DNA of 63,116 bases, filler included, from Bipalium vagum (lineage: Eukaryota), in NCBI GenBank assembly GCA_037834085.1. It is 3 parts of 3 records of this genome, joined end to end, with 100 filler letters (N's around TTAATTAATTAA, not from the genome) between each part and the next. Parts side by side here need not be neighbours in the genome. Positions count along the whole stretch, not along the records: positions 1 to 22,809 come from JBBMKC010216358.1; 2 more parts are not named here. One strand, given 5' to 3'. Shown one piece after another: positions 2,811 to 52,925 of the stretch (its first letter is position 1; each line of letters opens with the position of its first letter). The position numbers and the translations under genes were made by a program. Below the pieces are notes generated by a model. The model was not told the origin of the DNA. It worked only from the letters and a program-made list of their open reading frames with translations, and did no database searches.

Positions 2811-5800
2811 CTAATTATTGAAAATTGCACCTCCACCCCGAATGCCTTGAACCGCTTGTGGAGAAGTTATTGGTGCAGTACTCGGAGCATGACCGGCTCG
2901 AATTGGTTTGGCAATTTGAGGAGCTGGTCCACGTCTTGCTAAATTTCTTTGTCTCACAGCCTCTTTGATTCTATCAACTTCGTGTTGATATCGTCGTCGA
3001 TCTCGCATGGCTCCTTCTTTAGCATCTTTAAGAGCTGATTCAAGTGCTTTCACACGTTCAGTGGTACTCTTAATATTTGTATTTAACTTGTATTCAACAA
3101 ATCATCAGCATCAATGTTTAATAGAAGCTAATAAACCAAAACAACATCTATTTTTATTTTATGAAAACTGGAAGTAACATTAATTGTCAACAAGAATCTT
3201 TAAAAAAATTTGACAAATCTTTTAAAATATGAAATACAATATATTAAGTTTGAGAAAATCAATCATAGCCTATATTTCTTAGTAGAATGCCGAAGAAATT
3301 AATTTCAAATTTCATCGACAGTGTGAAATTATCATATTGTTTAACATCCGAGGATAAGAAAATCCTTGTGAAATCTCTGGACAGAAATAACACGAATAGA
3401 AAAAACGAATATTGTTTAATATTTAATATAAATTTATGGAAGTTATCGGAGAAAGTTTTATATCTTTGCTATGGTTACTAAAGAAATCTGAATTTAAAAT
3501 TAAATAAAACAGTAAAAAACATAGAAGAAAATAAAAAAATTAATAAAATAATATTTTCAGACTGGAAATTAATGAATGAAAGGAGAAATTCTCTAAAATA
3601 CGATCAAAATTACGGAATGTCAATTCCATTAATTTGAGAAACTGTACAAAGTTATAATAATAGATGAGAAAAGAAAAAAAATATATTTTTCAGAGAATTT
3701 TGCATAAAATCAAAAGTTAACATGTTATAATCAACTTATTGAAATCCACCAAGAAGCAGGTATATGGCTGGGATAATGAATAAATTTGATGTTCATGATT
3801 TTTATAGCCATTTTATTATTGTAATACATGACTTAAATATTTTAAATTTATTTGTAAACTTCATTTTTATTACTATTCAATTAGTTAAACTAAATTCTAC
3901 TTTTTGTTGTCATAATAATTATGCAACATGCCTCAAATTATTTGGAGATAGTAGTGAGTGAAGAACTGATAAAAAGTTTTAAAGATGTTTCATAATATTA
4001 ATTAGGGCTCATAGAAAATTTGATAGAAAGAAAAAAAATTACTTTATAGAATTTATTATATAGAAAATTTCTCAAAAAATTAGTTCATGATGCACATTTT
4101 ATTTTATAAGATGTTTTTTGCTAAATAATAAGTTATTGTTTGATATTTTCGATTTTGAAATTGGTTGTCATTTTTGAAGTTTAGAATAAAGTTCAGGTGA
4201 AATATCAACTCGTTGTAATAAAATAATTGTCCTTAATCAAATTTCTGATCATTCGTTTAACAATGTAGTTCTTAATTCTAGAAGGGTTTTACCGAAATGA
4301 CAGTTTTAATAGTATGATATAAACCTTTATGGAACTATAAGGACACGTTATATATTTTATAAAATTCGTTATCTGCTTTTATTTTTAACTCAAACACAAC
4401 TATTACCAAACCACACTTAATTGACTTTTGGGAACCTTAATAATGCTTTAACAAATTTTTCCTCAATTTATACAAAGTATATACTTGAAAAATATTCATT
4501 ATGTTCATTATGTCCTAAAAATTTTAATATCATTCATTGAAAAATGGTTAAAATAAAAATTAATTAGTTTGATAATCTTTAACAAAATCAATAATTACTT
4601 AAAATTAATTTAAAATATTAAATAAAAATCGATCGCATATTAAGACTTTAAGAGAATTTTATTAATTTATTTGTTTCAAAAATTTTAAGTCGTGATAATT
4701 TGAAAAATGATAGATTAAGATATATCGGAAAAATTAAATCCTTGCATCTAAAAATATTTGAAATTCTAAGTCAACTGGACTCAATTATTTCTTTAAGTTT
4801 GATTTTCTGTCTTTTATTTCACTTTTAAGAATGCAACTTTAATTGAGAGCGAAAAGGAAAGAATATTTGTGCCATTACCACTCCCTATCAATTATCACAC
4901 AAGGAATAAAATATAATCTTACTTTAAGTCGCTTTTCAAGTTTCGGTAGTTCCAGCCTCAAATCGGAATTGTCTCTAACCAGTTGCTTATGTACTTTGGT
5001 GAGCTGCTCAAGATTCATTTCCAAAAACTGTATTTTTTGTTTCTGCACCAAATTGCCAGATCTACCGTCATCGTCATCATCATCTTCGCCAATAATTCCA
5101 GAATCACGGTTCACATCACGTGTTGACTATTTGATAGATATTAGTACATACATATAGATCAATAATATTAATAAATGATATACCTTTTTCACCCGATTGC
5201 TCAGATCTTGAACAAACAACTTTCTCAAATTATGCAAAGTTTGCAATTCTTTCATAACCGTATCCTCTAAACCTTTGAGGTCCTGTCGAGCTTGCTCTCG
5301 TTTTTCGTTTGCTTTTTCCAATCCTTCTAATTTTGCGGCTTTTATTTCTCCTTCGGCTACCACTTTCTCATATTCTTCTTTCAATTTTTCATTTTGGAAA
5401 GTCAAATGATGAATTTTGCTTTAACAATAAAAAAAATTTTGGATTTAAGTATCAAGTTTTCTAACTCTTTCATTTCCTCGCTCACACGTTGCTTCTCATC
5501 CAATTTGTCTCGCAGTTCTTTAATCTGTTGAGAATATTGCTCACTTTGCCGTTTAAATTCCTCATCCAATTTTGATTTAATATCCAATTGTCCGGCAAGT
5601 ATTTCTGCTCTATTTTGAGCATTGGCATTAACAATCAATTGTTCATTTGCCTTGAACTTAGATATTTCAGCATTCAATTGATCGACTTGTTCTTCAAGAT
5701 TTCGTTTCTGTAATTCTGTATCGTCTATTTTGTTATTCAACGTATTCATTCGAACTTCAAACTAATTATTATAAATAAAAAATAGTTTATAACCAGATAA

Positions 5801-8800
5801 CATCATACCTCTTGAACTTTCAATTTCATATCGCGCAATTCTTCGTCGGTTTTCTTGAAATTTTGGTGTTGTATTTGTCTTTCCTCTTCCAATTGTTTCA
5901 CGCGCATTTGAGTCGTCTTCGCTTCAGTTTTCATTTTACTAATATACAATCGTATAACTGTAAACTCCTCATCGATTTTCTCAATTCCAGCAAATGAAGG
6001 CTTCTATAAATCGACTTAAACACAAAACAAATGAATTTAATTATTTACACTAAGCTGATCACTCATACATTCTCCAACGTCACCGAGATCCTTAATTAAA
6101 CTATTGAACATTTCCGTGTATTTCTTTTTCTGCGTCGTGTAATTTTCCTTTAATTGTTGTAATTCATTGTCTTTAGTATTGATATTTTGAGTCTGCTGAT
6201 TTATCTGTTCTTGCATATCTTCGAGTTCGTGGGTTCGGTTTTGAATTTCTTGAATTTTCTGATCATAATTCATTGCCAATTCCTCAAGAGCTTGAAGTAC
6301 TTCTTTGACTTCTTCTTTACTGGATTCATTTTCGCCCTACAAAATTTACAATGAATACTTACTTAAATGTTTAATGGAATTTAGATACCTGCAATCGAGT
6401 GAATTCTGATTGAATCCGTTCCTGGTCTTGTCTAAGACTTTTGATTAATTCATCCTGCTCTTCTATTTGTTGTTTAAGTCTTTCAACAAATTGGGCTTGT
6501 TTGTTAATTTCTTCATCTTTATCATCAAGTAATCTGTATAACTCGTTTACCGACGAACTTTCTCCGATTTGAGCTACGTTTGAAAATATATAATGATTAG
6601 AAAGTCTACCTATCCAAGTCACTCATTTAAATTTGTTATAAAAAAAACTGTTCAAGAGGAAACAAAAATATTTTATTTCTATTTCAACATTATAGTAATT
6701 CATAAGTAATTAAGTTTATTATTTAAAATAATAAAAAAACAAAATTAGTAAAAACAAAAGTAAAGGCCATTGAATCAATAGTTTTAAACTAGTTTTTGAA
6801 TCTCTTGTTGGTACCATTCCTTGTTCTTGGACCTGAAAAACTCTTAGCTTTCAATCTACGCCCTAGGAGAAAATGTACCACTGATCAAAAAAGGTGGTAA
6901 TCCAATAGGCCTATATTGGAACTGTATGCTGGATGTGATAACAGTTCAATAGATTCTCATTCTTTGATTTTCTCGATTGTTTTCTTGGCAGTGTGCTGGT
7001 TTTTATTATTGTGCTGTGAGATCACCCGCTTTCTATTGACAAATGCCGGATATTTCAGATTTAGTTTTTCAAACATTCGATCCAATTGAGCACAATATAG
7101 GTCTGCGTCTAGTGATATACTATTTGAAATCAATTTGAAGTTGATTATGCCTTGGAAATTCCACCAAACGCACAATAATGTCTTCTGTGAGAATTGGTCT
7201 CTGCTTGGAACAGGTTGCTTGCTCAGAGTCCAACAACTGATTATTTTTGTGATGATTTGTGATGATCACCAGAAGTTATAATTTGTCTAATGAATCGATC
7301 ATCCCTCGGATTTTGCAGCAGCTTTCTACACATTGACCATAATTTTAGGTCAAATCGTGAGGTACTTCTCTACATCGTATATTGACCATACCGATTTCTT
7401 TAAGGTGTCGGACAACTGTTGCTTTGGAAATACCTAGATCAGCAGACAATATTCGAGTGTAAGTCGATCGTTTTATCTCAACATTGCGTAGCGCTTCCTG
7501 ATTTACAGTTACTGGTCTACCGTATAGAACATGTCAACATTAAATATTTTGAACCAGATTTGGACTATACGAATATTTTTCTGGCAGCTTCACTATATCA
7601 AGGCAGAGTGCGAATTTCAAAATTTTTCCATTTTTATTTCAGCTAAAATAACATTTATAACATAATTTAAGTAACCCAATGGTAGAAAATTTATTAAATT
7701 TTAAATTGATATATAAATCGATATATTCAAATTTTTTATCAACTAAAAAATTACTTTGAACTACTTAAACAAAATAATAATTACTTATGAATACAATCCT
7801 TTACTCACAAAAGAGAAAGTTCTCTGAATTTGAACGTAATTATTATGGTCACAATAATTTAATAAATTTATGGTCACAATTCTCAAAATAATAAACACGT
7901 TAAATTTTTTTATCAAATAAAACTAATCACTGAAATCAAAATAAACAGAAATATTTTAAAATACTGAGATACAAAAGTTAATATTATAAAACTGGATAGA
8001 AGTATGTGAAAATATAAACGAGTAAGATAAAAATACTTACAAAAGAATTTCATAAATTTATTGATTTGCAAAAAATAATCTTTAATAATTTCAGAAAAAT
8101 TTACAAACATAACACAACGATCAGAAAGATTAAGAAAAAATGTCACTTTAATGACACAATTCCTATGTTTAAAATTCGATAGAAAATATAATTCCCTTTA
8201 TTATTTCACTGAAAATATCAATTATGAACAAAGAATTGTGTGGAGAATTATGAATAAGCTCTAATGAGTTAGTAAAAGATATGGTGAGAAGTTAAATGAT
8301 GTAATAAAATCAGAAAACAAGCATAAGTGGTTCACAAGGATTCCTATAATAAATAACGAATATATGACAGAATCAAAAGTTACTGGTCCAGCACAAAAAT
8401 ATTTTTATAAGAAAATTTCCGAATTTTTTATATTTAAATGTATTAAAACAACATTTAAAGAATAAATTTTAGATCAAACCAGTTATTAATTTTAATAAAA
8501 TTTATTGAAAATATCTTAAATTTTACTAATTATTACCTGTTCTTATTTTCTGATTATATATATCCGAATTAAGCCTATTCAAACTGTCCGTAGATGCAGA
8601 AATAAGTCCCAGTTGACTATTTGTCATTTCTTTAATTTCTTCAGCAAGTTGATTATACTGAGATTCAGTAAACCACTCGTTTTGATTTAATTTTTCACCT
8701 AAAATTATAATCGTCAAGAAAGGTAAAACTTGAAAAAAACACGTGAAAAAGATACCAGCTCGCCATTTTTTAATCTCTGCCTCCAATTTCATGATAATGG

Positions 8801-11213
8801 CTTTAAGTTGTTTATTACGTTGTTTTTCTTTCTCGTATCTTCTCCTCCATTCTTCAGCTGTCAATTCTTCGTTCACACTGACACAGTTTTTAATAGTTTT
8901 CGCTCTCATACCAAACATCAAAGTTGATTTAGTTTCTGCATCATTAAATTCTGCAGGAGAACAACAAATAACCATAGTAGTGCGAGCATTGCCACCGAGA
9001 GATTCTTGGAGTATTCTAGTCAATTTTGAATCTCGATATGGAATATGTGCCTAGTTTAAAGAATTAGGGCTTATTTTAAAAAAGTCCTAACAATAACTAT
9101 TCAGTAACATTTTAGAAAATTAAAACTTATTTTATTAAATCATTAAGCAAAACAGGATTTTATTTTGCACGAATTGTGTTCTGAATTATAGGCTAACTAA
9201 AAAATCAATAAAGTTTTGTTGGAATTATTAATGAATTGGTGGACAAAGAATTACATTTATTATTAAATAATTTTTATAAATATATACTGTGAATTTAATC
9301 ACCAGGAAAAAATTCTCTCATATACACACAAACCGAGTGATTGTGACTTCAATTTTCTGCTTTAAAAATCAATTCCAGAACTAACTTTCGTAGAAAAATA
9401 TTTTTCTCGAAATTTCTTACTGTCAAAAATAATAAATTAATAATCTTTTTTATATTCCAAAAATAATTATAATTTGAATTTTAGTTTACATCAAAAGGAT
9501 TAAATAAAACGGTAAAAACCTAATAATATTAAATGGATCTGAAGTCAAAATGACTTAATACTAATTTTCATATTTATGCAATAAATTATTTTTATCAATG
9601 TTCAGTAGACAGTGAAATTACTGTCATAACTAAAATCATAATAGAACGAATGTGCACATGTGATTCGAATGAAGCACATAAATTTTCGAATATCGATTAT
9701 TTTAAAATTAATATCTCATTAATTATACATCAATAAAAAATAACAATTAAAAAATGAATGAATATTCTTATGAATATTCAAGACGAAACTATAACTATAC
9801 GTAAATATTTTAAGTAAAATATCAATAAATTACACTGCCTTCCACCAATGCATTGATTACATTCCCCAATGCAGACAAGGATTTATTGATGTTTTTAGCC
9901 TCATCAAGAACAGTTCCTTCTGCACCGGTTTTTGCCACTTTCTCACTTCCTGCCAAATCAACAAGATATAACTTCCCGTGTAATTTTTTCTGAGTTTCTA
10001 AATTTTCCTGTTTGACTTGAATCATAAACACTGAATGACTTCTACTACTATGTTCGTTCATATCTAAATATTCTTAGAACAACTGAAAACGTTAATAATC
10101 TCCTCACTTGTAACAGACACATGTCGATTTGCTTTTCCTTCATCAATCACATCAAATACCTCTTCAGGGCTAGAAACAAACCTTTCTGTTGCTCCCTTCA
10201 TCAAAATTTAATTCAAATACAAAATTCAAATAATAGCAAAACCTTTACAAATGGAACTCGATCTTTATCTTCATGCACTGATAAATTAGTTTTCGATACT
10301 GCAAAAAAGATTTTTTTAATACTTTAGTTTTAGATATACTTGATTTCCTAAATTATTTTAATATTATTTATCTCAATCTGTATAATTTTTGGTACACATG
10401 TGAATTTATAATTTCTATATATTATATCACAAATTCTACACAATAAAGTTAGAAATATTTTATAGAAATAGATAAAATATATATAACTAAAGAATAGATT
10501 TTAATTTTAAAGAAAAGCTGTGCCGATTTAACACTTGATATATCATAAATCTTTATAAAACATTTGGAATTAATGTTTTTTTAAAAATTGATTAATTTCT
10601 AGAATACTTAATACTCATTATACAATTTTAATTTGATAGTAAGAAATTCATACCATCAAGCAAATCTCTGATTTTATCCAGATATATTTCGAAATATGAG
10701 ACCTAATATAATAATTAATAAATATTGATTACTTTATGATTATTGAAACCTTAATATGAAATTCTAAATTTTCATCCATAGTATAAATATGATCAAATAT
10801 GTCATGAATAATTCTAGGAATTATCCCTTGATATTCTGGATCACCCAAAACTCCTTCCATAGTAAATGTTTTACCACTAGCCGTTTGACCATATGCAAAA
10901 ATTGTTCCATTATAACCACTCAAAACATCAGCAACAATTGGCTTCGCAACAACCTCATATACTGCTGCTTGAGTTGATGTATGCTGCAAAACTCTGTCGA
11001 AAGTGAACGTGCGTCCCTAAAAATTAGATCAATCCATTCTTTACATGTGCGAAAAAATATAACTAATAAAAATGATCTAGAAAATAAACCTACTTGAATA
11101 ACGACCGAATTATCCGTTGATGGAGGAAAAGAAAGACAGCTCTTGCTTTTAAGATTAGTTTCATTTACATTTAAAGGTCTAACTCGACATACAACTTTAA
11201 TACTTTCTGACAT
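2811..11213 (-). CDS. Khc: Kinesin-1 heavy chain (KIF5/Khc orthologue), about 15 exons
   Basis: ATG at 11213 ([13 protein letters not shown]). P-loop GQTASGKT (~10870), switch I NEHSSRSH and switch II DLAGSE (9822-10061), LGGNARTT and neck [17 protein letters not shown] (8526-9051), coiled-coil exons 4920-6580. The last exon 2811-3068 follows an AG acceptor ([18 protein letters not shown]...QIAKPIR, the IAK autoinhibitory motif). Introns checked are GT-AG. Confidence 0.97.
6770..7680 (-). mobile_element. Degenerate mariner (Tc1/mariner) transposase inside a kinesin intron
   Basis: ORF 6957-7175 [11 protein letters not shown]...LYCAQLDRM...[11 protein letters not shown] is the typical mariner catalytic region; flanking frames are broken. 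Confidence 0.85.
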
Positions 11214-11819
11214 TGTTTACAAAATATTTGCAACGATATGGTAATTAAATATTTATATATTTATTAACTAGATTATTTAAACAAAGTGACATTGTCTATA
11301 TATTAGTATTCTAAATTTTAAAAATTATATTTTACTCTAAATTTGTATTTATAATAATTCATTGTGCTACAAGTAATTTACTTTATACAAATAAAGAATT
11401 ATTATTCATAAGATATAATACCAATAATTTTGAAAGAAATAAGGGATTTTGTATTAGAAAGAGTTTAAAATCCATAATAACAATAAAATATAAATGCATT
11501 TTATAATTTTAGTTTATTAAATAAAAAATTTTATTATAAAAAAAATTAATGTACTTAAATACATAAAAATTAAAAGAAAAATAATAATTTTTAACATAGA
11601 CCCAAAAAACGCACTCAACTTTAAAATCGATTAGGAGCTGATTCACAAGCCGCTTGACAGTTTATTGACGATTAAATTAAATAGTAATTATTTGTATTTT
11701 ATCATTTAAAACTTATTGACTTAAATTTATTATTTTCTTCAATGTGATTGATTTTGTTTGAGATCACAATTTACTGACTATGCTTTCAAATACAAAAATA
11801 AATTTGAAAAAGGTTATAC

Positions 11820-12457
11820 CGCAAAATCGGCGACGTTCGCCACAATGGTTGGATAGAAATAAAACTCCAAAACATTTCCCAAAGCCAAATTTCTACAATA
11901 AAAAAATTATGGTGACTATTTGGTAGCCCATGGCCGGTCTGATCCATCACAGCTTCCTAAATATGGGCGAGACTATTACAGCAGAAACATACTGCCAGCA
12001 AATAGAGAAAATACATAGGAAACTTCGAGTCATCTGTCCGGGACTGGTCAATAGAAAAGGTCCAATTCTGCTGCACGACAATGCACGACAATGCACGCCC
12101 ACAATGGCACAAACAACATTGCAGAAAATAAACAATTTGGGCTACGAGATTTTGACTCATCCTCCATGTTCTTCAGACCTCTCACCAACAGATTTCCATT
12201 TCTTTAAGGCTCTGGATAATTTCTTGGTCAATAGGCGTTTCGAAATCCGAGCCAATGCTGAAATGTCCTTTGAGGAGTTTCTTGCCTCCAGGAACAAAGT
12301 TTTTCATTCCACAGGCATGAATAAACTCATCACTAGTTGGTAGAAATATATTGACTTGCATGGAAATTATCTTGATAATTAAAGTTTATTTCCCATTGAA
12401 TTATGACATTTTTACTTTTATAGCTGTAAAACGACATTATTTTTGCACCAACCTAAT
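11820..12457 (+). mobile_element. 5'-truncated mariner transposon (DD34D type) with right TIR
   Basis: ORF 11930-12343 has ILLHDNAR and HPPCSSDLSPTDFHFF. A mariner-type TIR end aaaacgacattatttttgcaccaacctaata lies at about 12428-12457. Confidence 0.9.
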
Positions 12458-13159
12458 ATATTTAAATATTAAAGTTGTTTTAATTTTTAAAATTTTTAAT
12501 TAGTATTTATTTATTTAATTATATAAAAAACAAGATGAAAAAAAGCAGCAGAATAATTGCAATTTCCTACAATTCCACTATTAGAAATATTCGGTAAACT
12601 AATAGATGATGACGAATACTTAATAGATTGTGATTGTAACCCTCGAAAAACAAATATAATTCAGGTACATTATCCTGGTACTCAAAAACAAACAACGATA
12701 ACCGAAATAATAGATCTGACAGATACCTTAAAAGAAGCACAAATTCTCCCTAAGGAAGTAGAACCAGAGTATTGTGAAGTTCCTAAAGAATCAGAGGAAG
12801 AAAAACCATTACAGCAGGAAAAGCACGAAATAGTCCATAAGGTATGGCAGGAAATGGATCAAACTGATGTTGTATTACATGAAATTTTAGAACAAGATTA
12901 TCAACCCCTTGCTCAAATGAACCCACGATATTGGCCCACTGATATAGATGATGCGCAAATATCAGAAGATAACAATGAGCTTAAAATCCCAGAGTACAAT
13001 TCCACCTAGAGATAAGCCGACAACATCACAAGCAAGAGACCAAACTATACAAACTGATATAGTTTCAGGTTCGCAAGTAGGAACTCAGAAACCAGCAATC
13101 AAAATTAAAAAACCAAACCCTGTATCGGAAAGTATACCCTACATTAGGCAGTTAACAAA

Positions 13160-13600
13160 AACGGATACGATAAATCAAATAAAACAAAACCTTATATTTA
13201 AACAAGCGCAAAAATTGGCCGAACAAGTAAACAGTGATTTTGAAAATGAAAACATTCCAAATGAGCTGCTACACAATGTTACTACCATAATAAATGCCTT
13301 GCAAACTGATAATTGCCCGAATAACAGTGAAAATTATAATTTAATAAATAAGATAAAAAATCTAATTCCCAAAATCAAAAGCTTAAATGATATGAACCTA
13401 TCTCAAGTACAAGACCTCATCACAAACACACCCAATCAAGGAACATGTCTAACGGGACTCACAATTTTAATTCAACAGGCAATGCAAAGTATTAAACAAT
13501 CCCCAGAAAAAATACAAAGAATCATCAGAGATACTACAATGAATATAAAAGAAATAGTGGAACCCTTTCTTGAAAATTTGGGAGGATGGCAAACGCTAAA
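13160..13600 (+). pseudogene. Putative Bcl-2-like domain within the retroelement polyprotein
   Basis: Helical segment with BH3-like QAQKLAEQVNSDFE, BH1-like TPNQGTCLTGLTIL (cf. NWGRIVAFF) and BH2-like EPFLENLGGWQTL (cf. WIQDNGGWDAF), in the correct order and followed by a hydrophobic anchor. Confidence 0.55.
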
Positions 13601-13642
13601 TGCAAATCCTACAACAAATCCAACAAGTAGCAGTAACTCAAA

Positions 13643-15457
13643 TATGGTACAATGGATGATGATGATGATGTTAATGTTTTCACTGATTAAAACCGGAGGA
13701 GGATTGATAGCATATGATTCTGCGAATCCGAAATTTGGAAAAATATATTCCCTTATAGACACACAAGAATGCACTTACTTATCATCTAGTAATCTCACAG
13801 CCAAAACATCAGCTTATTATGTCTATCAAGAAGGTGATTACTTCCGTACGCACGCAAAGGAGTGCGAGTAACAGCCGAAACATGTGAAAATGCTTTCCAA
13901 TTTAATAAAATCCGAATAGATGACAAAAAACCCATTGCCGTCAAAGAAAATACGATTACTAGGCAAATAGTTACACGAGGATCAATAAATTATGATGGAA
14001 AATGTGATGGAGAACAGAAAAAGGTATCCGGACAGGACGTCAACGAGGTGGTAGACATAGAGGACTATCAAGTTGAACTACTTACTTATGAAGGAGTATT
14101 TGATGTCATTACTGGACAATTATTATCTAAACCAAGTTGCAATCTAAAAAAGGGATATTGTGTCACGCAAGAAGCAGCATTATTGTATGATAATAATAAA
14201 GATCACTGTAACCTGAGAAGTCTGAAATTGACAAACTTTCATGAAATAACAGGCGTACGACTTAACCCAGCCAGAATAAATATACAAAAATTCCAGAAAA
14301 TTACCGAACAGCCCCGAGGAGAAGTTCTGCTATAGATGAAGCAAAAACACCTACTGTTCTAGTAACAACGGATAGAAAGGAACTAATCCGATTGATTATT
14401 AAGAAACAAGTAGTAAAATGTGGAGTAGCAGTATTTGAAACCAATTATAAAGGAATATACGTCACTAAGGACAGAGTATCAAAACCAATGCCAAAAGATA
14501 GCTCAGACATCAAGATAAATATGTATTTAAATAATAAAATCGATTATCTATATCATGATTTACAGACACAATTAAAGGATGTATATCAAGAGACTATTCT
14601 AAATAACTGCAAATTAGGACGAGAAATATTAAAAAATTGGTTACTTTTAGCCATTAATAATCACGAACTAACATCACCCCTATTAGTACAGGATGGCGGT
14701 TTTGGTTGTAAAATGGGCGAAGCCTTGTACACGTACAAATGCGAGAAAGTAAATGTCCCATTAGCAAAATTCAATGAATGTACTAGTGACTTACCTATTA
14801 TTTATCAAAAGAAACTACGGTTCATTTCCCCATTAACTCGAATAATACTAGAAGTAAATGTGCAGCTTCAAATAGCTATGTGGTCCTATTATATCCCCTT
14901 TATATAATATCGGAGAACAATGGATATCCTTACCACAGAGGAAACCACTAAGAGAAAAAGTACAAACCATAAAGGGAATAGAAATGCAAAATATGGTTGA
15001 GTTTACACCTTTACCTTCTATTAATGAAGGAGAGATATATTCTCCCGAAGACATTGATCAGGTCAGGAAAGTAATACTATTTCCTCAGTCACAAGAGAGA
15101 GGTATAATATAAATGATCACAAAAATTTACAATGCCCAGGAAGGTAAAATGGATTACAACCTATTATTTGGAGCAGACCATTATTTTATACATGCAGCAA
15201 AAAATGTCATCACGTATATTTGGGGAGGTTTTAATACATTTGGTACATGGATTGTCAGATTTTCAGGTGTATACTTCATTTGCCAAATACTAAGAGGAAT
15301 CGGTAGCAGTTTCATGTCAGGTCGTAGTTTACATCACGCACTAGAATGCTCATGGAAACTAATTTTAGCCAGATGCCCACCAATAGCCAATCGAGAACTG
15401 CACAAAAGACATCGAAAAGACATTGATTTATTGAGGAAACAATGCCATTACATGTAA
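13643..15457 (+). pseudogene. Chuvirus-like (Jingchuvirales-type) envelope glycoprotein, frameshifted
   Basis: Signal-like MVQWMMMMMLMFSLIKTGGG then LIAYD..YSLIDTQEC; GSINYDGKCDG; CNLKKGYC; YLNNKIDYLYHDLQTQLKDVY...CKLGREILKN...GEALYTYKC...ECTSDLPI...FISPLTRII; C-terminal TM WGGFNTFGTW...GRSLHHALECSWKLILA. All are characteristic of chuviral-type glycoproteins. Confidence 0.85.
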
Positions 15458-15869
15458 AAACCCATTACCAGAACCTCAAAGCACAGGCATCATCACCATA
15501 GGAAGCATAATAATAGTAACGATGACAATGGATCAATTCTCCCAAAACCTATAATCACAGAACCCAAAGATTACTGACCTAACTGGGATGTAAAGGAACC
15601 AAAAGACATCTACAGTACCACCTCACAAGTTTATAATAAATTTAAGACTAGTATTATCAAGAAAAGGAGAACACCCTCTGTAATTGAACCAATAGAATTT
15701 CAAACACACCAAACTAGCAGCCTAGATAGAATGCCAAACAGATCAACTGTATATCCCCAATCTGAACTAACGAAAATTCGAAAATCCATTCAAGAAAATG
15801 ATGTTATGATGCGTTTAGGAATACCTCAACGTACATCATGCATGGTAATAGATAAACTAGGTCACATAA

Positions 15870-16170
15870 ACGATAACAGACCATATGTCCGTATCAAAAT
15901 AAATAACCATTCTTTATTAGCCTTAATTGACACAGGTTCAACAGCTTCCCTTATTCAAAAATCAATTCTTACACCTAACGAACTACAAAAAATGGATAAT
16001 ACTAATAATGGTGATAGGCATCGGAAATATGCCATATTGTTTAGCAGGCACATTGAAATACTAAATCATCAAATAAGTTGTAACATCAAAGTTGGAGAAG
16101 ACAATGCACATGAATGCGTACTTGGAATGGATATATTGAAACGAATTTCAGATTTAATGCTAATTTTTAC
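15870..16170 (+). pseudogene. Retropepsin aspartic protease copy 1
   Basis: RPYVRIKINNHSLLALIDTGSTASLI...ECVLGMDIL. Confidence 0.9.
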
Positions 16171-16489
16171 CACTGGTGAAGTCTTTGACGAGAATAAAGT
16201 ACTTACACCAAACGAACCCCTAAGCACTAGCACGATAGCTTGCAATGAAAATACCGATTTCACTAGTGAAATTGTAAATAAATCCGATGACATCATTAAC
16301 TTAATTAAGGAAACAATGGATGAAAACACAAACCGTATAAATCAACCTATACCCAATATTTCAACGTGTAATGATAAAATTGTGCAAGATATATTAGCAG
16401 TAGTTTCCAGTATGGGTCATCAATACGCATTTGGATTGAATGAAGATGGAGTATTTGAACAACTATTTACACATTTATCTATTCTTTTT

Positions 16490-17130
16490 ACCATACCCGA
16501 TCAGTATGGAGATACCCCGCTTCACAACGCTATTCTAAAAGGAAATATTAATCAAGCCAGAGATATAATTCGTATAATCAAAGAAAAATACTGGTGGATG
16601 TTGGATCACGAAGACATTTTTGGTCTTACCCCTTTGATTCTAACACCATCATGCGATACACCGATAGGATTAATGCAAACACTAGTAAACTTAGGCTGTA
16701 GAATTGACAAACGTGACAAAATGGGAAAATCTGTTATTGATTATACACTGGATTCGTGTAATGTCGCTGCCTTACGATTTCTTTTAGATAAATTTAAACA
16801 ACATAATCTAGAACAAATAATAAATTGTTACCCAAACAATTATTATTCGCCATTTCAAAATGCCATAATGAAACACTTTATTCCCAGAGTATAAATGTTG
16901 CTCGAACTTAAAAATGAGGCAGGAGATTATATGGTGAAAATAAACGATCAAAACCCGATGAATGGTCAAACAACATTACATATAGCAGTGATAGCTAGTC
17001 ACCCTCATATTTTAAGACTACTACTAGAAAGACCAGATATAAATACTTACATTCAAAACACTACTGGTGATACAGCCTTAGATGTGGCATATAGAATGAA
17101 GGAATTATATACTGCTGAACTAATTCTGGC
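16490..17130 (+). pseudogene. Ankyrin-repeat array 1 (about 5-6 repeats)
   Basis: DQYGDTPLHNAILKGN, FGLTPLIL, DKMGKSVIDY, YSPFQNAI, NGQTTLHIAV, TGDTALDVA. One in-frame stop at 16892-16894. Confidence 0.9.
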
Positions 17131-17319
17131 CCAAGTAAATATTAGACGGATAAATACCCCATCATTAGTCAATCCATGTTGTGTAATTTCACCCTTAAAT
17201 ACCCATAGCGGTGACAATACTAATATTGATCAACCAACTACATTTTAATACCAAAATTAAAATTGACATATTACCCTCTAGCACATCATGTATGATGATG
17301 GACGGATTAGAAGAAGACC

Positions 17320-17630
17320 AAAGGCTATATGTAGTCATGAAGATAAATGAACATATAATGTTAGCATTAATTGATACGGGTTCCCAAACGTCATGCTTAC
17401 ACAGGGAAATTTTAACAGAACAAGAAGAAGATCGTCTCGAATATAACCCTATGGTAGCATACGGAGTAGGAAATACCCCATATTGCCTCACAGGTACATT
17501 AAATTGCACCATACACTTTCTAAACCAAGTATTTGAACATCCGATGTATATTATCGACTCAAATTCCCGTATTCAAATTCACTTATTTAAAAGGATTCCT
17601 AATTTGGTACTAAATTTACGAACAAATAAA
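17320..17630 (+). pseudogene. Retropepsin aspartic protease copy 2 (C-terminal G-M-D motif missing)
   Basis: RLYVVMKINEHIMLALIDTGSQTSCL...YGVGNTPYCLTG. Confidence 0.85.
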
Positions 17631-17979
17631 ATGTATACAGAAAATCCTCAAGAATCAGGCAATGAAAGTTCTTCATCTAGTGGTGCATCTTCAATTCAGT
17701 CATTTGAAGAGACATTTGGAGTTAGAGAAGAAACAGTAGAGGAAATGAGAGAAGAAAACCGCACAAACGAAAACAATACCTTAAACGAATCAAATCGACA
17801 GATAGAAAAACCAGTCATGATAGTTGCATCTATGCATACCACAGCAAACTCAAATATGCATACAAATGCTCTAAGACAATTCTTCACTGATATGTCAAAA
17901 CTAGCTCATTATTTTGCATTTGGAAGGAAGAAACAAAGGAAGAAACTTTCAACGAAATGGCTAGAAAATTACCCGCTTT

Positions 17980-18630
17980 ATTCACAGTCCCTGACAAGTT
18001 CGGTGATACTCCATTGCACAACGCAATTCTGAAAGGAAACTCAGAAGTAGCACTTGAAATAATCGAAATTATAAAAAATAATTTTAAATGGGTTCTTAAT
18101 TTCGAAAACACTTTTGGACATACACCACTCCTAGCAACACCTGCATGTGATGTTTCATTAAATGTAAAAATCAAATTAGTCGAGAGTGGATGTAAAATAG
18201 ACCATTGGGACAAAGCAGGAAAATCAATTATAGACCATGCTTTAGAAGCTAACAATATAAATGCCCTGCGATACATAATGGTACAAATCCAATGCAAACA
18301 CTTACCCCAAATGTTCCACCGATATCGAAACAATGTGCAAACGTCCTTACATTTAGCGGTGTCATTAAATTTTGTAGAAGCAGTAAAGTTAATGATTGAA
18401 CTTAGAGGATATGATAATGAATTCATGATAGACATAAACGAGAGAAAATATTTAAACGATGAAACATTCCTTCATCTTGCAAGCCGTCATGAAGTGAATA
18501 CAGAAACAATTAAAATACTGCTAAAAAGGCCTGATGTGGATTTATTCCATCAAAATATATACGGTCAAACTGCGCTAGACATGGCCCGAGATAAGCAACT
18601 AACAGAAATTATAACCTTACTAGGCGCAGC
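17980..18630 (+). pseudogene. Ankyrin-repeat array 2 (paralog of array 1)
   Basis: DKFGDTPLHNAILKGN, FGHTPLLA, DKAGKSIIDHA, VQTSLHLAV, DETFLHLAS, YGQTALDMA. Confidence 0.92.
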
Positions 18631-18789
18631 CGAATATAACACCATAATTAATATGCAACAAACCCCTCATTGTTTGATCAAATAGACATATTTTCTGATT
18701 TTAATTTTCACCTTGTAACTAGAAATGACAATGATTCACCACCATCTAGTGTAAGTTGTGTACGAAATTCATTCATAACTAACAAAACC

Positions 18790-19400
18790 CGACCCACGAT
18801 TACGATCAGAGTAAATAAACATAGAGTTCTGGCTCTAGTAGATACTGGAGCACAGACATCTCTTATTGATGCTCGCATTTTAAATGCAGAAGAGCAAGCT
18901 GCAGTAAATACATCACCGATATCAGTAATAGGCGTAGATGGTAAATCAGTACCTTTATTAGGAACATGCAGAAGTATCGTTAGAATAATGGGTCACGATA
19001 TAGATCATACATTGAAAGTAATGGAAAAAAATGAACTTGAGTGTATAATCGGCATGGATATTTTATCCAAAATCCCTGGATTAATTCTTGACTTTGCAAC
19101 TCAACAATTAAAATTCTTTCATCCCAAAAGTTGTAAAAATGCTGATCATGTAGCCGTTGTGCTGGACCAAGCCATTATACCCGCCAAGCACAAACAGATA
19201 TGTCTGTTAGCTACTAATTTACCTAATGGGCAAGAAGTGATGTTTGAACCTTCAGAAAAATTCATTAACAGTAGTAATCTCACCACGCAAGCTACGTTAG
19301 CCATTGTGAATCGTAACCGAATCCCCATAAGAATAGCTAATTTTGACATAAAACCAAGAAAAATCCATCCCGGAATGAGAGTGGGAACTATTAACGAATA
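18790..19400 (+). pseudogene. Retropepsin aspartic protease copy 3 (pol-proximal) plus the beta-rich spacer common in gypsy pol
   Basis: RPTITIRVNKHRVLALVDTGAQTSLI...GVDGKSVPLLG...ECIIGMDIL, followed by IIPAKH...VMFEP...IPIRIAN...IHPGMRVGTI. Confidence 0.9.
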
Positions 19401-19501
19401 TGTTCCACACACAGATACCATAACCCAGCAAAAAAGGCATATGAACCAGTACAAGTAACCACATCTACCCTGACAATTATCTAAAAAAACGGTTCGCTCA
19501 A

Positions 19502-20840
19502 TTGTTAAGAATTTACAAAGATGCATTTGCCAAACATGAATTTGACGTAGGAACATCTAACATTTTACAACATGAAATACGTCTCACAAATCCCCAACCT
19601 ATTAAACAACGAGCTTACCGCACCCCACACACCTTAAAAACGGAGGCGGATAAGCAAATAGCTCATTGGCTAGAGACTGGTATCATTAGCCGTAGTTCAT
19701 CACCATGGTCCTCAGCTATGATAATTGTAAAAAAGAAAGGAGGAGAATGGAGAGTGTGTATAGATTACCGAAAATTAAATGAAGTAACCGTAAAGGATAA
19801 CTATTCACTTCCATTAATTGAAGATATGTTTGACAAATTGGGTACAGCTAAGCTGTTTACCACAATTGATTTACAATCAGGATATATGAACATCAAAGTT
19901 GCCGAACAGTCACGAGAAGCCACAGCATTTATAACAGAAAAAGGTTTATATGAGTTCAATAAGATGCCATTCGGTCTTAGAGGAGCACCCGCCACATTTC
20001 AAAGAGCAATGAACCTTATGCTCATGGACATTGCACATGTCATGGTAGACATAGACGACATTATCGTATTTTCCCCTGACTTCGAAGCCCATATGAAGGA
20101 CATGGAGGAAGTATTAAAAAGAATAAAAGTAGCTGGTTTCAAAATTAAACCCAGAAAATGTGAATGGGGAAGAACTCGGTAAAGTATATAGGGCATATAA
20201 TATCTCAAAATGGCATAGAACCTGATCCTGAAATAATAGAGAAAGTAAAAAATGCAATAGCTCCCAAAACGCCCAAGCAAGTACAAATATTTCTCGGTTT
20301 AGCAAACTATTACCGAAGATTTGTCAAAAACTTTGCCAAAATCGCAGCACCTCTAAATAAACTATTAAAAAAGGAACAGACTTTCAAATGGACTACTGAT
20401 CATCAAACGGCCTTTGATCAATTAAAACAATGTTTAATTTCATCACCAATCCTACGATACCCTGATCCCAAAAGACAATTCGAGCTAATGTGTGATGCTA
20501 GCGGAACTGCTATTGGAGCAGTACTAGGACAAAAAGATAATGAAAACAGAGATTACGCAATTGCATACGCCAGCCTTAGCCTTAAACCCCACGAAAGCAT
20601 TATGCGGTAATAGAACTAGAATGTCTAGCAATCATATTCGGAGTTACAAAATTCCGAACCCATTTATGGGGTCGAGAATTTATTGTGCATACCGATCACA
20701 ATCCTTTAGCTTATCTAGAAAAGCACCGAGACACATCATCCCGCCTTATAAGATGGTCACTTAAACTGCAAGAATACAATTATAAAATAATTTATCGAAA
20801 AGGAAAGGCGAATGCAAATGCAGACGCACTATCCAGAATG
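19502..20840 (+). pseudogene. Reverse transcriptase and RNase H (Ty3/gypsy), frameshifted
   Basis: SSSPWSS, WRVCIDYRKLN, IDLQSGY, MPFGLRGAPATFQR, catalytic DIDD (YxDD mutated), YIGHII, FLGLANYYRRFV, CDASGTAIGAVL, TDHNPL, RLIRWSLKLQEY, GKANANADALSR. Confidence 0.96.
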
Positions 20841-21039
20841 CCTGAAGTATGTTTACTGAGTCAGATAAAAAAGCTTAATACCCTTGACGATCTTAAATGA
20901 GTAATAAGCGACGATTCGGAAATACAAAAAATTGACCACTATATAAAAAATCCATCTCTTGCTACAAATACTCCATATGCAAAATTATTAAAAAAATTTT
21001 CATTGGAATGAAGGCTTATTAAAATATAAAGAGCATTTA

Positions 21040-21235
21040 AATTCAGTTATTTTTGTACCAGAAAGTCTACGAGAATCAGTGTTGGTACAGTATCACGATG
21101 GAACACTTGGTGGACACCTATCAAATCGAAAAACCCGTTCCCGTATCAGTCAAAAGTACTACTGGCCAAATATGATTCAAGATATCAAACAATGGTGTAT
21201 CACGTGTAAAATCTGCCAAACACGTAAAACACAGG
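21040..21235 (+). pseudogene. Integrase N-terminal HHCC zinc finger; catalytic core absent
   Basis: YHDGTLGGHLSNRKT...YYWPNMIQDIKQWCITCKICQ, then an abrupt switch to unrelated AT-rich sequence. Confidence 0.9.
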
Positions 21236-21255
21236 AAGAAAATTTTTTGATAATC

Positions 21256-21462
21256 TTAATTCAAAACAATTTTTATATATTTGAATGCTGCTTGAAGAAA
21301 AGCACTTTTAGAAAAAATAATTAAATTATTATAATCAATAAAATTTTGAGTTAATAACATTTTATACAATAATTCTGTTTTTCCTGATCCTGAAAGACCA
21401 ATAATTAACATTCTATTAATAAATATTGTTTGTATGATTATCAATTTGAATTGTGTTATCAT
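21256..21462 (-). pseudogene. Polinton/adintovirus-like A32/FtsK-type packaging ATPase, N-terminal fragment
   Basis: RMLIIGLSGSGKTELLYKMLL..FIDYNNLIIFSKS, a Walker A motif in the typical Polinton ATPase context, next to a penton-like remnant. Confidence 0.75.
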
Positions 21463-26454: not shown

Positions 26455-27026
26455 TTTGGTTGTCTAATAAATTCGTGCCGTTTTTTTTCGAAGTCGTTTT
26501 GAATGACATTAGACATCTATTATTAATTTAATTTAATATTTAAATAGACAGATCACGTGTTTGTTATTTATTAATAGTGCTTTTAGCTCATTAGTTTTTA
26601 ATTTAGTTTTACATGAAATTCAAAATGGATATCCAATTCAATAAAAATGAACATCTCCGACACGCTCTTCTATACCAGTTTAATTGCCATGTTAATGCAA
26701 CCCAAGCTTCCCGAAACATAAATGCCGTGTACGGAGAAGGTACAATGTGTCTTCGGGCAGTTCGAAAATGGTTTTCTAAATTTAAGAAAGGTGATTTTAG
26801 CCTTAACAATGCTACTCGTTCCGGACGTCCATCCCATTTCAGTGAAGAGTGTCTCAGCTCTCTTCAAAAAGCTGACAATCGCCAAACAACACGTGAATTA
26901 TCTGAACAACTTAGTTGTAATCCACAGACAGTCCTGAACCATCTCCTTAAAATGAGGAAAGTTCAAAAATGTTATAAATAAAAATTTTGCATTTTAAAAA
27001 CGGCACGAATTTATTAGACAACCTAA
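26455..27026 (+). mobile_element. Internally deleted mariner with near-perfect ~31-bp TIRs and TA target duplication
   Basis: Left TA|tttggttgtctaataaattcgtgccgttttt, right aaaaacggcacgaatttattagacaacctaa|TA (1 mismatch). ORF 26613-26981 encodes only the HTH DNA-binding part (HLRHALLYQF...VRKWFSKFKKGDFSL...RSGRP). Confidence 0.93.
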
Positions 27027-27695: not shown

Positions 27696-28500
27696 TGGAC
27701 ATTATGCGCGAAGCACTACACCCTGGAATTTTCAGGAAAGGTGACTACATCGAAAAATTTATTAAGAGGTGCACCAAATATTTTGAGTGCGTGGATATAA
27801 AGAAAAAAATTAAAAGGTCTGTTAGTGGTAGGCTTTATTGATTGAGAGCTAAGGGAAGCCTATTAATGCCAAAATAAATCGCTAGATAAAAAGATCGTCT
27901 ACGAAAGGCATTTCTGAGAAAAACAACTTTAATGCAGGACTTGGAAGAAACAATAAAGTACAAAAGGACAGATGAGAATATCTATTTGTACAAGTAGAAG
28001 ATCGAAGGATTAGTCAATAAAATTTTGATGCATACGCTGGACAAAGAACAATTAACAAAGGAAACCATTGTTAATAGCTGTCGAGATTTAAGAATTCAGA
28101 CGAAAATTAAAGGGGGCAAATTAGGCAATTCAGATAATATATTCGAGGCAATTAAAGCAAATTATAAATTAAAGAATGATCTGAGCGAGAAGGACAATAT
28201 CAACGTAGTTCAGAGATACAGTGATGTTTTAAAAAGGCCAGCAATTAAAAACAGGGCCAGTGAACGATCAAGACCTCAAAATTTTATTCCACAGAGAGTC
28301 AGAAATGAGATGACATGCTGATCTTGTCAAAAAGTAGGTCACACAAGTCTAAGATGCTCGGAAAAAAAAGAAATCGTGTTACGCGTGTGGACTGATCAGC
28401 ATCTGATCAATATGACAGGATAAGATGTTCGAGATGTGATAGGAATGGACATCGTACAGAGGAATGTTACACAAATTTGAGACAATAAGGTTACAGGCAA
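27696..28500 (+). pseudogene. LTR-retrotransposon gag remnant with CCHC zinc knuckles
   Basis: MDIMREALHPGIFRKGDYIEKFIKRCTKYFE...; TC*SCQKVGHTSLRC; CYACG; RCSRCDRNGHRTEEC. Stops and frameshifts throughout, and no pol follows. Confidence 0.8.
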
Positions 28501-28569
28501 GGAAATGAAAATTATTATTTTATAATTTATTTATTAATTATTAATTATATATTTTATTAATGTATTTTC

Positions 28570-41989: not shown

Positions 41990-42860
41990 GAATAGGTGCT
42001 CCAAAAGTTGGCTAGAAAAATCACAAATTTGAGCAATTATTTATTACGAATGGAAAAATAACACTAGCAAAAATGAAACTGTCTCGAAACTTAACGAGGT
42101 GCTTGGTGAAGAAACAATGCAACTGCGAACAGTGCAAAATTGGTTCAAAAAATTCAATAGTGGCAATTTTTTATTGGAAGACAAAGAGAGATCCTTTTCT
42201 CGACCGCCTAGTCACTTGCCATGAAAAGTGGATCTATCATGACAACATAACCAGACGAAAATCGAGGTCGTTGAAAGGACAGCTTCCGCAAAAATTGAAA
42301 AACCCATCTTACACGAAACAAGGTTCTTTTATGCATTGGTGGGACTCTCGTGGAATTATTTTTCAGAAGTTTCTCAAGTCCGGAGAAACCATTAATTCTG
42401 ATATCTGTTGTAACATGCTAAGAAGAGTTCATACCATTATGAAGGAAAACCTGAGAACTTTGATAAACCGAAAACAAATGATTTCCCCCCAAAATAATGC
42501 CAAGCCTCACAAATCAATGAAGTATTTAAGGTTATTCAGGAATAGAACTGGACTCTAATGGAAAATCCGCTATGTAGTTCCGGTATCGCCCCATCCGATT
42601 TTGATTTGTTCCGGGTATTACAAAATCACTTGATGGGTAAATATTTTAAGAGTTCCGATGGTATAAGGAATGAAGTACTTTCTTTCTTTCATTCAAAAGA
42701 TCGATATTTCTTTAATACTGGGATCAATAAACTTCTAAATAGATGGGATGCAGTAATAGAAAAAAATGGGGAATATTGTTAATTTTTTATGATTAATAAA
42801 TTAAATTTAACTTCAGTCTTAGTTTAGTTTTTAATTAAAAATGAAAAAACTTACCTGATA
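41990..42860 (+). mobile_element. Mariner transposase pseudogene
   Basis: FLDRLVTCHEKWIYHDN, WWDSRGII, QNNAKPH, SSGIAPSDFDLFRVLQNHL, INKLLNRWDAVIEKNGEY. Confidence 0.9.
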
Positions 42861-52469: not shown

Positions 52470-52925
52470 TTTATTCAACTGAAAATGAAAAAAAACAGTT
52501 TTATAGAAAGATTTAATAGAACTTTTAAAAATTTAATGTTTAAAAAATTTACAGAACAAGGAAATAGAAAATAGTTACATTTATTACCAAATTTAATTAT
52601 TTTTTATAATAATAAAATTCATAGTTCAATTGGAATGACTCCTTATGAAGCGAATAAAAGAATGAAGCGAATCCTGAGAAATTGAAAACTGATAAAATTT
52701 CCACTGTTTCTCAATTATCTTTAAATTCTAAATTTTAAATTGGAGATAAAGTTCGAGTTTTTAAAATATAAAAATAGATTCGAATACGGATACAGGGCAA
52801 AATGGACTAATGAAATATTAATCTTTAATGAAATTTATTTTAAAAATCCTATTGAATAAGGAATTCTTGATAAAAATGAAAAGATTTTAGGAAGGTTTTA
52901 TGAGAATGAGCTTTAAAGAAGCTTT
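52470..52925 (+). pseudogene. Polinton-type (c-integrase) retroviral-like integrase, C-terminal remnant
   Basis: IERFNRTFKNLMFKKFTEQGNRK*LHLLP..IFYNNKIHSSIGMTPYEA...KF*IGDKVRV...FEYGYRAKWTNEI...ILGRFYENEL. Confidence 0.8.

Follow-up and report, generated by a model that had tools for sequence, protein, structure and literature searches.

Burro elements, also named GYPSM1, are giant LTR retrotransposons of gypsy-like type found in planarians (Jurka 2007 and Grohme et al. 2018, both as summarized in PMC6431247). They are over 25 kb in length, carry LTRs and have gag upstream in one giant open reading frame (ORF), and their domains include a ubiquitin-like (Ubi2/SUMO-like) motif, BCL2, an in-frame env like the fusion proteins of mononegaviruses, ankyrins, a dUTPase-like motif and apoptosis-related domains other than BCL2 (PMC6431247). 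The presence of a BCL2-like domain and its position before env are already known from this description. Expression of Burro is under PIWI control (PMC8532177; the term 'Bcl' was not found in the accessible part of this article), and the anti-apoptotic activity of Burro1 has been ascribed to its IAP region (Lee et al. 2026, cited in PMC13465017).

A sequence-only reading of the window (the whole stretch of Bipalium vagum DNA that was analyzed, 63,116 nucleotides with filler) had proposed a retroelement-encoded Bcl-2 homolog at 13160..13703. The motifs do lie at the positions given, with the reading frame in register from 13161 rather than 13160, and every string quoted was found in a single stop-free frame at 12948-13871. 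We consider it probable, at roughly 80%, that the locus represents a giant Ty3/gypsy element of Burro type, in broken form, in which a diverged Bcl-2 homolog precedes an in-frame Env and is joined to it by the internal signal peptide of the Env. A full HMMER search yielded 19 proteins, with the same Env family in 17 of them, and these relatives were utilized in the comparisons described here. The features of the locus are as follows.

12557..21258, plus strand: truncated, decayed env-before-pol Ty3/gypsy (Burro-type) copy (Pfam, tblastn to relatives)
12578..12682, plus strand: probable C-terminal half of a ubiquitin-like domain, in a different frame from the Bcl-2-like ORF (tblastn to P0005 520-554, E 3.5e-4)
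13161..13262, plus strand: helical N-terminal extension containing the BH3 candidate, outside the domain common to relatives
13212-13244, plus strand: BH3 candidate KLAEQVNSDFE (translation)
13263..13598, plus strand: divergent Bcl-2-like helical domain (profiles of relatives, E 4.5e-10 and 2.4e-9)
13431-13469, plus strand: BH1 candidate PNQGTCLTGLTIL (translation)
13431..13499, plus strand: BH1 position in degenerate form (NQGT in place of NWGR), along with the predicted central helix 5
13566-13598, plus strand: BH2 motif with GGW, FLENLGGWQTL (GW in 8/8 aligned sequences, the rows having been picked for carrying GW; fits the Bcl-xL BH2 region)
13599..13643, plus strand: uncharged S/T/N/P linker (translation)
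13644..13703, plus strand: likely internal Env signal peptide, with a Met-rich hydrophobic core (13644-13694) and a polar end (PF24664 profile; -3/-1 pattern)
13695-13718, plus strand: GGG/LIAYD, the slash marking the predicted cleavage site (translation)
13704..15442, plus strand: gB-type (Monjiviricetes-like) Env, broken into four pieces (PF24664, E 7.9e-10, 2.6e-30 and 1e-7)
15884..19392, plus strand: protease, ankyrin, protease, ankyrin, protease (Pfam, tblastn)
19484..21258, plus strand: frameshifted RT, RNase H and integrase zinc finger, ending before the integrase core (Pfam, tblastn)

Pfam and tblastn matches on the plus strand gave a domain order of ubiquitin-like piece, helical domain, Env, protease-ankyrin-protease-ankyrin-protease, RT, RNase H and integrase zinc finger. 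The Ty3/gypsy order of protease, RT, RNase H and integrase is present (Pfam, tblastn), as is the Burro order of BCL2-like domain, env and protease, together with ankyrin repeats and a ubiquitin-like piece before BCL2, the last of these matches being weak; in P0008, the region judged by eye to correspond to 12578..12682 gave a weak match to Pfam ubiquitin (E 0.031). The stretch after the third protease, up to 19392, lies at the place of the dUTPase-like motif of Burro, by position only. In P0005 and P0008 a zinc knuckle is in frame upstream of Env. Relative to intact relatives (tblastn of P0005, P0008, P0011, P0015 and P0020), the reading frame changes six or more times. For this copy, which is cut at both ends, neither gag nor LTRs nor an integrase core were found within the window, and the tested flanks had no 14-mer in common. 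This copy is broken and likely silent. It forms an island of higher GC (12.5-21.3 kb) within the window.

A run against contig records (X1) placed 4,820 records on the element, 404 of them at 99% identity or above and 1,750 below 90%, with all 30 bins covered; these figures are a depth of records and not a copy number. As the records span identities from at least 99% to less than 90%, many diverged copies of the element are indicated. In the relatives, Pfam detected up to four protease stretches in P0005 and six in P0020, and multiplication of the protease seems to be typical of this element family. Elsewhere in the window, 27998-28509 holds a gag-like fragment weakly similar to P0005 in its zinc knuckle (E 4.6e-4) and 52488-52646 an integrase-like fragment (E 4.8e-4 to P0011); both are probably remnants of other retroelements. 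Kinesin heavy chain exons, named by eye, occupy 2811-11216 on the minus strand, and the Burro-type fragment lies ∼1.3 kb upstream of the first kinesin coding exon, pointing away from it. A Mariner-type transposase remnant was detected at 11927-12343 (Pfam Transposase_1, E 4e-8), and further remnants of this type were seen by eye at 6957-7265, 26607-26981 and 42016-42558.

As a single query, the window sequence had no Bcl-2 match in Pfam, NCBIfam or PDB sequences, nor did P0003 against PDB sequences. Word-based homolog searches with the window sequence and scans of viral and metagenome contigs were empty, and the ESM Atlas returned no usable match for the window domain and unnamed leads only, at 0.81, for P0001. 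Matches to the Pfam Bcl-2 family (PF00452) were, however, detected in 3 of the 19 relatives (E 7.7e-5, 9.6e-4 and 0.012), covering profile positions 35/36-100 directly before Env, with scores of 16.5 to 23.6 bits that lie below the curated cut-off of 31.4 bits. A GGW or QGW was present upstream of the hydrophobic helix in 7 of 18 genuine relatives. Family profiles of five and eight sequences, the window included in each, both had Bcl-xL as best match (E 4.8e-4 and 5.6e-4), spanning its helices 4-8, and the best 60 of 89 and the best 60 of 165 matches, respectively, were all of the Bcl-2 family. A profile built from the domains of six relatives, without the window and without Env, recovered the window ORF among 908 targets at 35.8 bits (E 4.5e-10), the next target scoring 10.0 bits. 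With a profile from the three relatives whose best first match is the start of Env, the window ORF scored 33.3 bits (E 2.4e-9), and in a shuffle run the domain reached 34.9 bits as against 9.3 bits or less in 2,000 shuffles. These profiles indicate that the window domain is a divergent Bcl-2 homolog, and the proposal of a retroelement-encoded member of this family was, to that extent, upheld.

The BH2 assignment of FLENLGGWQTL also held, given the GW shared by all aligned sequences and the agreement with the BH2 region of Bcl-xL. GGW occurs once across the six frames of the 63-kb window. When the ORF was shuffled 20,000 times, a BH2-like pattern, written post hoc after the sequence had been seen, occurred once, and this pattern together with N-x-G at the right distance never occurred. 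The Asn at the BH1 position is 51 residues before the Trp of GGW and 52 in Bcl-xL, as counted from the profile alignment. Of the 40 X1 differences listed, out of 1,390, none fell inside 13566-13598.

Two single-sequence AlphaFold models were all-helical and unreliable (pLDDT of 42.8 and 40.8), the latter having eight predicted helices. A Foldseek search with this unreliable model returned Bcl-2-fold chains as the top 6 and as 28 of the 42 matches listed, none of them significant (E 0.55 at best, TM 0.17 to 0.30), while the first model, likewise unreliable, gave Bax at rank 4 (E 1.6). Against a viral library, Foldseek detected nothing significant, with v-bcl2 at rank 24. In a three-dimensional alignment of an unreliable model, the best Bcl-2 chain was Mcl-1 (Z 3.5, rmsd 3.8, 80 aligned). 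The absence of any Bcl-2 chain among the 50 matches listed in a wide three-dimensional search and of any single-sequence match would fit with the domain being an unrelated helical linker in which the motifs arose by chance. Such an origin is highly improbable in view of the PF00452 matches of the relatives, the results of both the family and the relatives-only profiles and the published annotation of a BCL2-like domain at the same position (PMC6431247).

The BH1 motif was degenerate. The divergence of NWGR to NQGT that had been pointed out in the window is present, with the Asn and Gly kept and the Arg lost; the six aligned relatives keep Arg or Lys at BH1 and lack the Gly in every case, and an intact NWGR was found in none of the seven aligned domains. 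KLAEQVNSDFE, tried as the BH3 motif, was rejected: it lies 66 residues before BH1 and upstream of the domain common to relatives, whose first residue is near 13263 (ORF residue 106), and the stretch preceding this start scores 0.9 bits. The BH3 consensus signature is L-x3-G-D. Helix 2 presumably lies near 13326-13379, as judged by eye against Bcl-xL, and no BH3 signature was seen there by eye. By these sequence comparisons, the window domain is Bcl-2-like and not a canonical multi-BH member of the Bcl-2 family. Loss of the BH1 Gly has been regarded as rendering a functional groove improbable (PMC8998228), and some poxvirus proteins without recognizable BH motifs bind BH3 helices (PMC11209288).

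The Env is ∼20 to 30 codons shorter than its relatives near 13865 and has a predicted transmembrane helix at 15236-15292; by eye it is closest to that of Smed_errantivirus_4 of Schmidtea mediterranea, with 36 of 84 residues identical in one gap-free stretch (supplement of PMC13524379). This resemblance to Schmidtea elements, together with AT-rich and intron-rich host sequence, suggests that the host is likely a planarian. Between the Bcl-2-like domain and the Env, the short S/T/N linker that had been described is present and uncharged, while the corresponding linkers of the relatives are longer and often charged. The segment from 13644 to 13868 matched PF24664 over profile positions 4-76 of 653 (E 1.3e-4). 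As this match begins at position 4, the hydrophobic helix is located at the site of the signal peptide of this Env family. Cleavage was predicted between 13703 and 13704. In a set composed of 17 relatives and the window, a small residue was present at -3 in 18 of 18 sequences, at -1 in 16 and at -2 in 6, relative to a background of 0.30; the Env motif, rather than the small-residue rule, fixed the cleavage site, and the counts are not independent since the 18 sequences are related. P0017 was dropped from this set (spectrin-like, a chance match). The count does not include P0006, which was not placed, P0020, a member of the P0013 cluster, or P0021, which lacks Env. The profile match and the -3/-1 pattern uphold, as a prediction, the claim of signal peptidase cleavage at GGG/L and suggest that the helix is likely to be the signal peptide of the Env.

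The helix was kept in three relatives that are without the Bcl-2 domain, namely, P0005 (with 889 residues upstream, the zinc knuckle among them), P0011 (150 residues) and P0013 (161 residues), and, hence, travels with Env. The domain was present at the same pre-Env slot in P0001, P0003, P0007, P0008, P0012 and P0015; the occurrence of elements with and without it points to gain or loss within the family. The hydrophobic core in the window (13644-13694) is encoded by an ATG repeat, and Met runs were also observed in P0003, P0005, P0009 and P0010. These runs could provide internal starts or allow changes in length by slippage.

According to the sequence-only reading, the same helix might also be the tail anchor of the Bcl-2 domain. 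In its full form, this explanation has the helix persisting as a lasting anchor after cleavage, with the product acting as an anti-apoptotic vBcl-2 of the classical kind, able to bind BH3 helices. The helix does begin 19 residues after GGW, where the anchor of a Bcl-2 protein belongs (PMC8998228); viral Bcl-2 proteins devoid of BH motifs, such as DPV022, are able to bind Bak, Bax and Bim (PMC11209288); and Burro1 shields stem cells from apoptosis, but by way of its IAP region (as cited in PMC13465017). The helix is, however, short and ends in the signal peptide cleavage region. Its longest uninterrupted uncharged run is 12 residues in the window and 5 to 15 in relatives, which is below the length usual for tail anchors (about 18 to 22 residues). 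The distance from GGW to the cleavage site varies from 38 to 76 residues among the window and relatives, and the helix persists in the three relatives without the domain. Furthermore, co-translational insertion targets proteins to the ER and not to mitochondria, and the BH1 motif is incomplete, with the Gly missing from each of the six aligned relatives and the Arg from the window domain. We consider a lasting anchor of this kind unlikely, and the claim that the helix is the domain's own tail anchor was not sustained; with the helix as the Env signal peptide, tethering of the Bcl-2-like part to a membrane would be a side effect only.

The Met-rich nature of the helix is also compatible with Env being produced mainly from a subgenomic mRNA starting at a Met of the helix, such that the signal peptide would be N-terminal and linked to the domain only in the full-length polyprotein. 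Consistent with this explanation, 6 of 18 relatives (P0002, P0006, P0009, P0014, P0016 and P0018) have a predicted start no more than ∼20 residues from the cleavage site, and ectodomains bordered either by a signal peptide or by a pair of membrane helices have been reported (PMC13524379). Short predicted starts are, however, equally expected from broken copies, as gene callers place the start at the first Met following a stop codon or the edge of a contig, and P0005, P0008 and P0015 run for 807 to 1,362 residues in frame into the helix. Main production of Env by this route seems improbable to us.

For a polyprotein in which the internal signal peptide of Env follows the Bcl-2-like domain, we propose the following sequence of events. 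In intact elements, a long polyprotein would be made in the cytosol. The helix would insert into the ER with its N terminus outside, Env would be translocated and signal peptidase would cut before the h-x-AYD motif, while the transmembrane helix of Env would bring the protease-RT-integrase portion back to the cytosol. As P0008 and P0015 are in frame from far upstream through the domain and the helix, cleavage would leave an upstream product ending in the Bcl-2-like domain, the linker and a signal peptide stub, which may be tethered to the ER in the manner of flavivirus anchor-C or HCV core. This tether would probably last only until an intramembrane protease or a protease of the element frees the upstream piece; the topology implies a transient ER tether, and a lasting or mitochondrial anchor does not follow from it. 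Capture of a Bcl-2 transcript of the host is the most likely origin of the domain, which is likely to influence the survival of the host cell, probably not by means of a canonical BH3-binding groove. A possible, if doubtful, extension is that Burro-type elements reuse the Env signal peptide as an anchor, so that each Env bound for the ER would leave behind a membrane-tethered survival modulator of Bcl-2 fold, with a remodelled groove lacking NWGR, on the cytosolic face.

The idea of a shared anchor and signal peptide was not found in the literature searched; this coverage did not extend to Grohme et al. 2018 or to Lee et al. 2026, which may detail the domain. Troyka elements (PMC12440569) were set aside as a comparison. 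The GAG-ENV-POL errantiviruses with an HSV/gB-type Env (Smed_errantivirus_1-6) resemble the window copy in having Env before pol (PMC13524379). They differ in being intact, and the term 'Bcl' is absent from the main text and seven supplements of PMC13524379 as accessed. With Bcl-xL and the viral Bcl-2 proteins of DNA viruses, the window domain shares a profile match (helices 4-8 of Bcl-xL), the GGW of BH2, a near-equal BH1-to-BH2 spacing (51 versus 52) and a downstream hydrophobic helix. Unlike these proteins, it has no intact NWGR or BH3 signature and is embedded in a polyprotein, and its helix, unlike their anchors, is short and ends in a predicted signal peptidase site. In flavivirus anchor-C and the HCV core-E1 signal peptide, a single helix both anchors a cytosolic protein C-terminally and acts as signal sequence for the next glycoprotein (PMC7601889), a double use that the window helix would share. 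There is no homology between these systems and the window, the upstream protein in the viruses is a capsid, and processing has been shown for the viruses and is predicted here; in flavivirus anchor-C and HCV core, a second protease frees the cytosolic protein (PMC7601889).

The closest match is with Burro itself. Both have a BCL2-like domain directly before an in-frame env, a ubiquitin-like motif, ankyrins and then protease, RT, RNase H and integrase, and decayed copies with stops and frameshifts, as seen here, have been reported for Burro in Dugesia japonica (PMC6431247). The window copy differs in being an 8.7-kb fragment without gag, BIR, MATH or LTRs and in having three proteases alternating with two ankyrin blocks, and the accessible part of the Burro description does not discuss a signal peptide or processing (PMC6431247). 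The additions made here are modest, namely, a helix that conservation suggests is the Env signal peptide, the occurrence of relatives with and without the domain and the loss of the BH1 Gly-Arg pair. If the domain works, it would be a second apoptosis-related cargo of Burro-type elements beside the IAP region of Burro1 and would bear on the persistence of retroelements in planarian stem cells.
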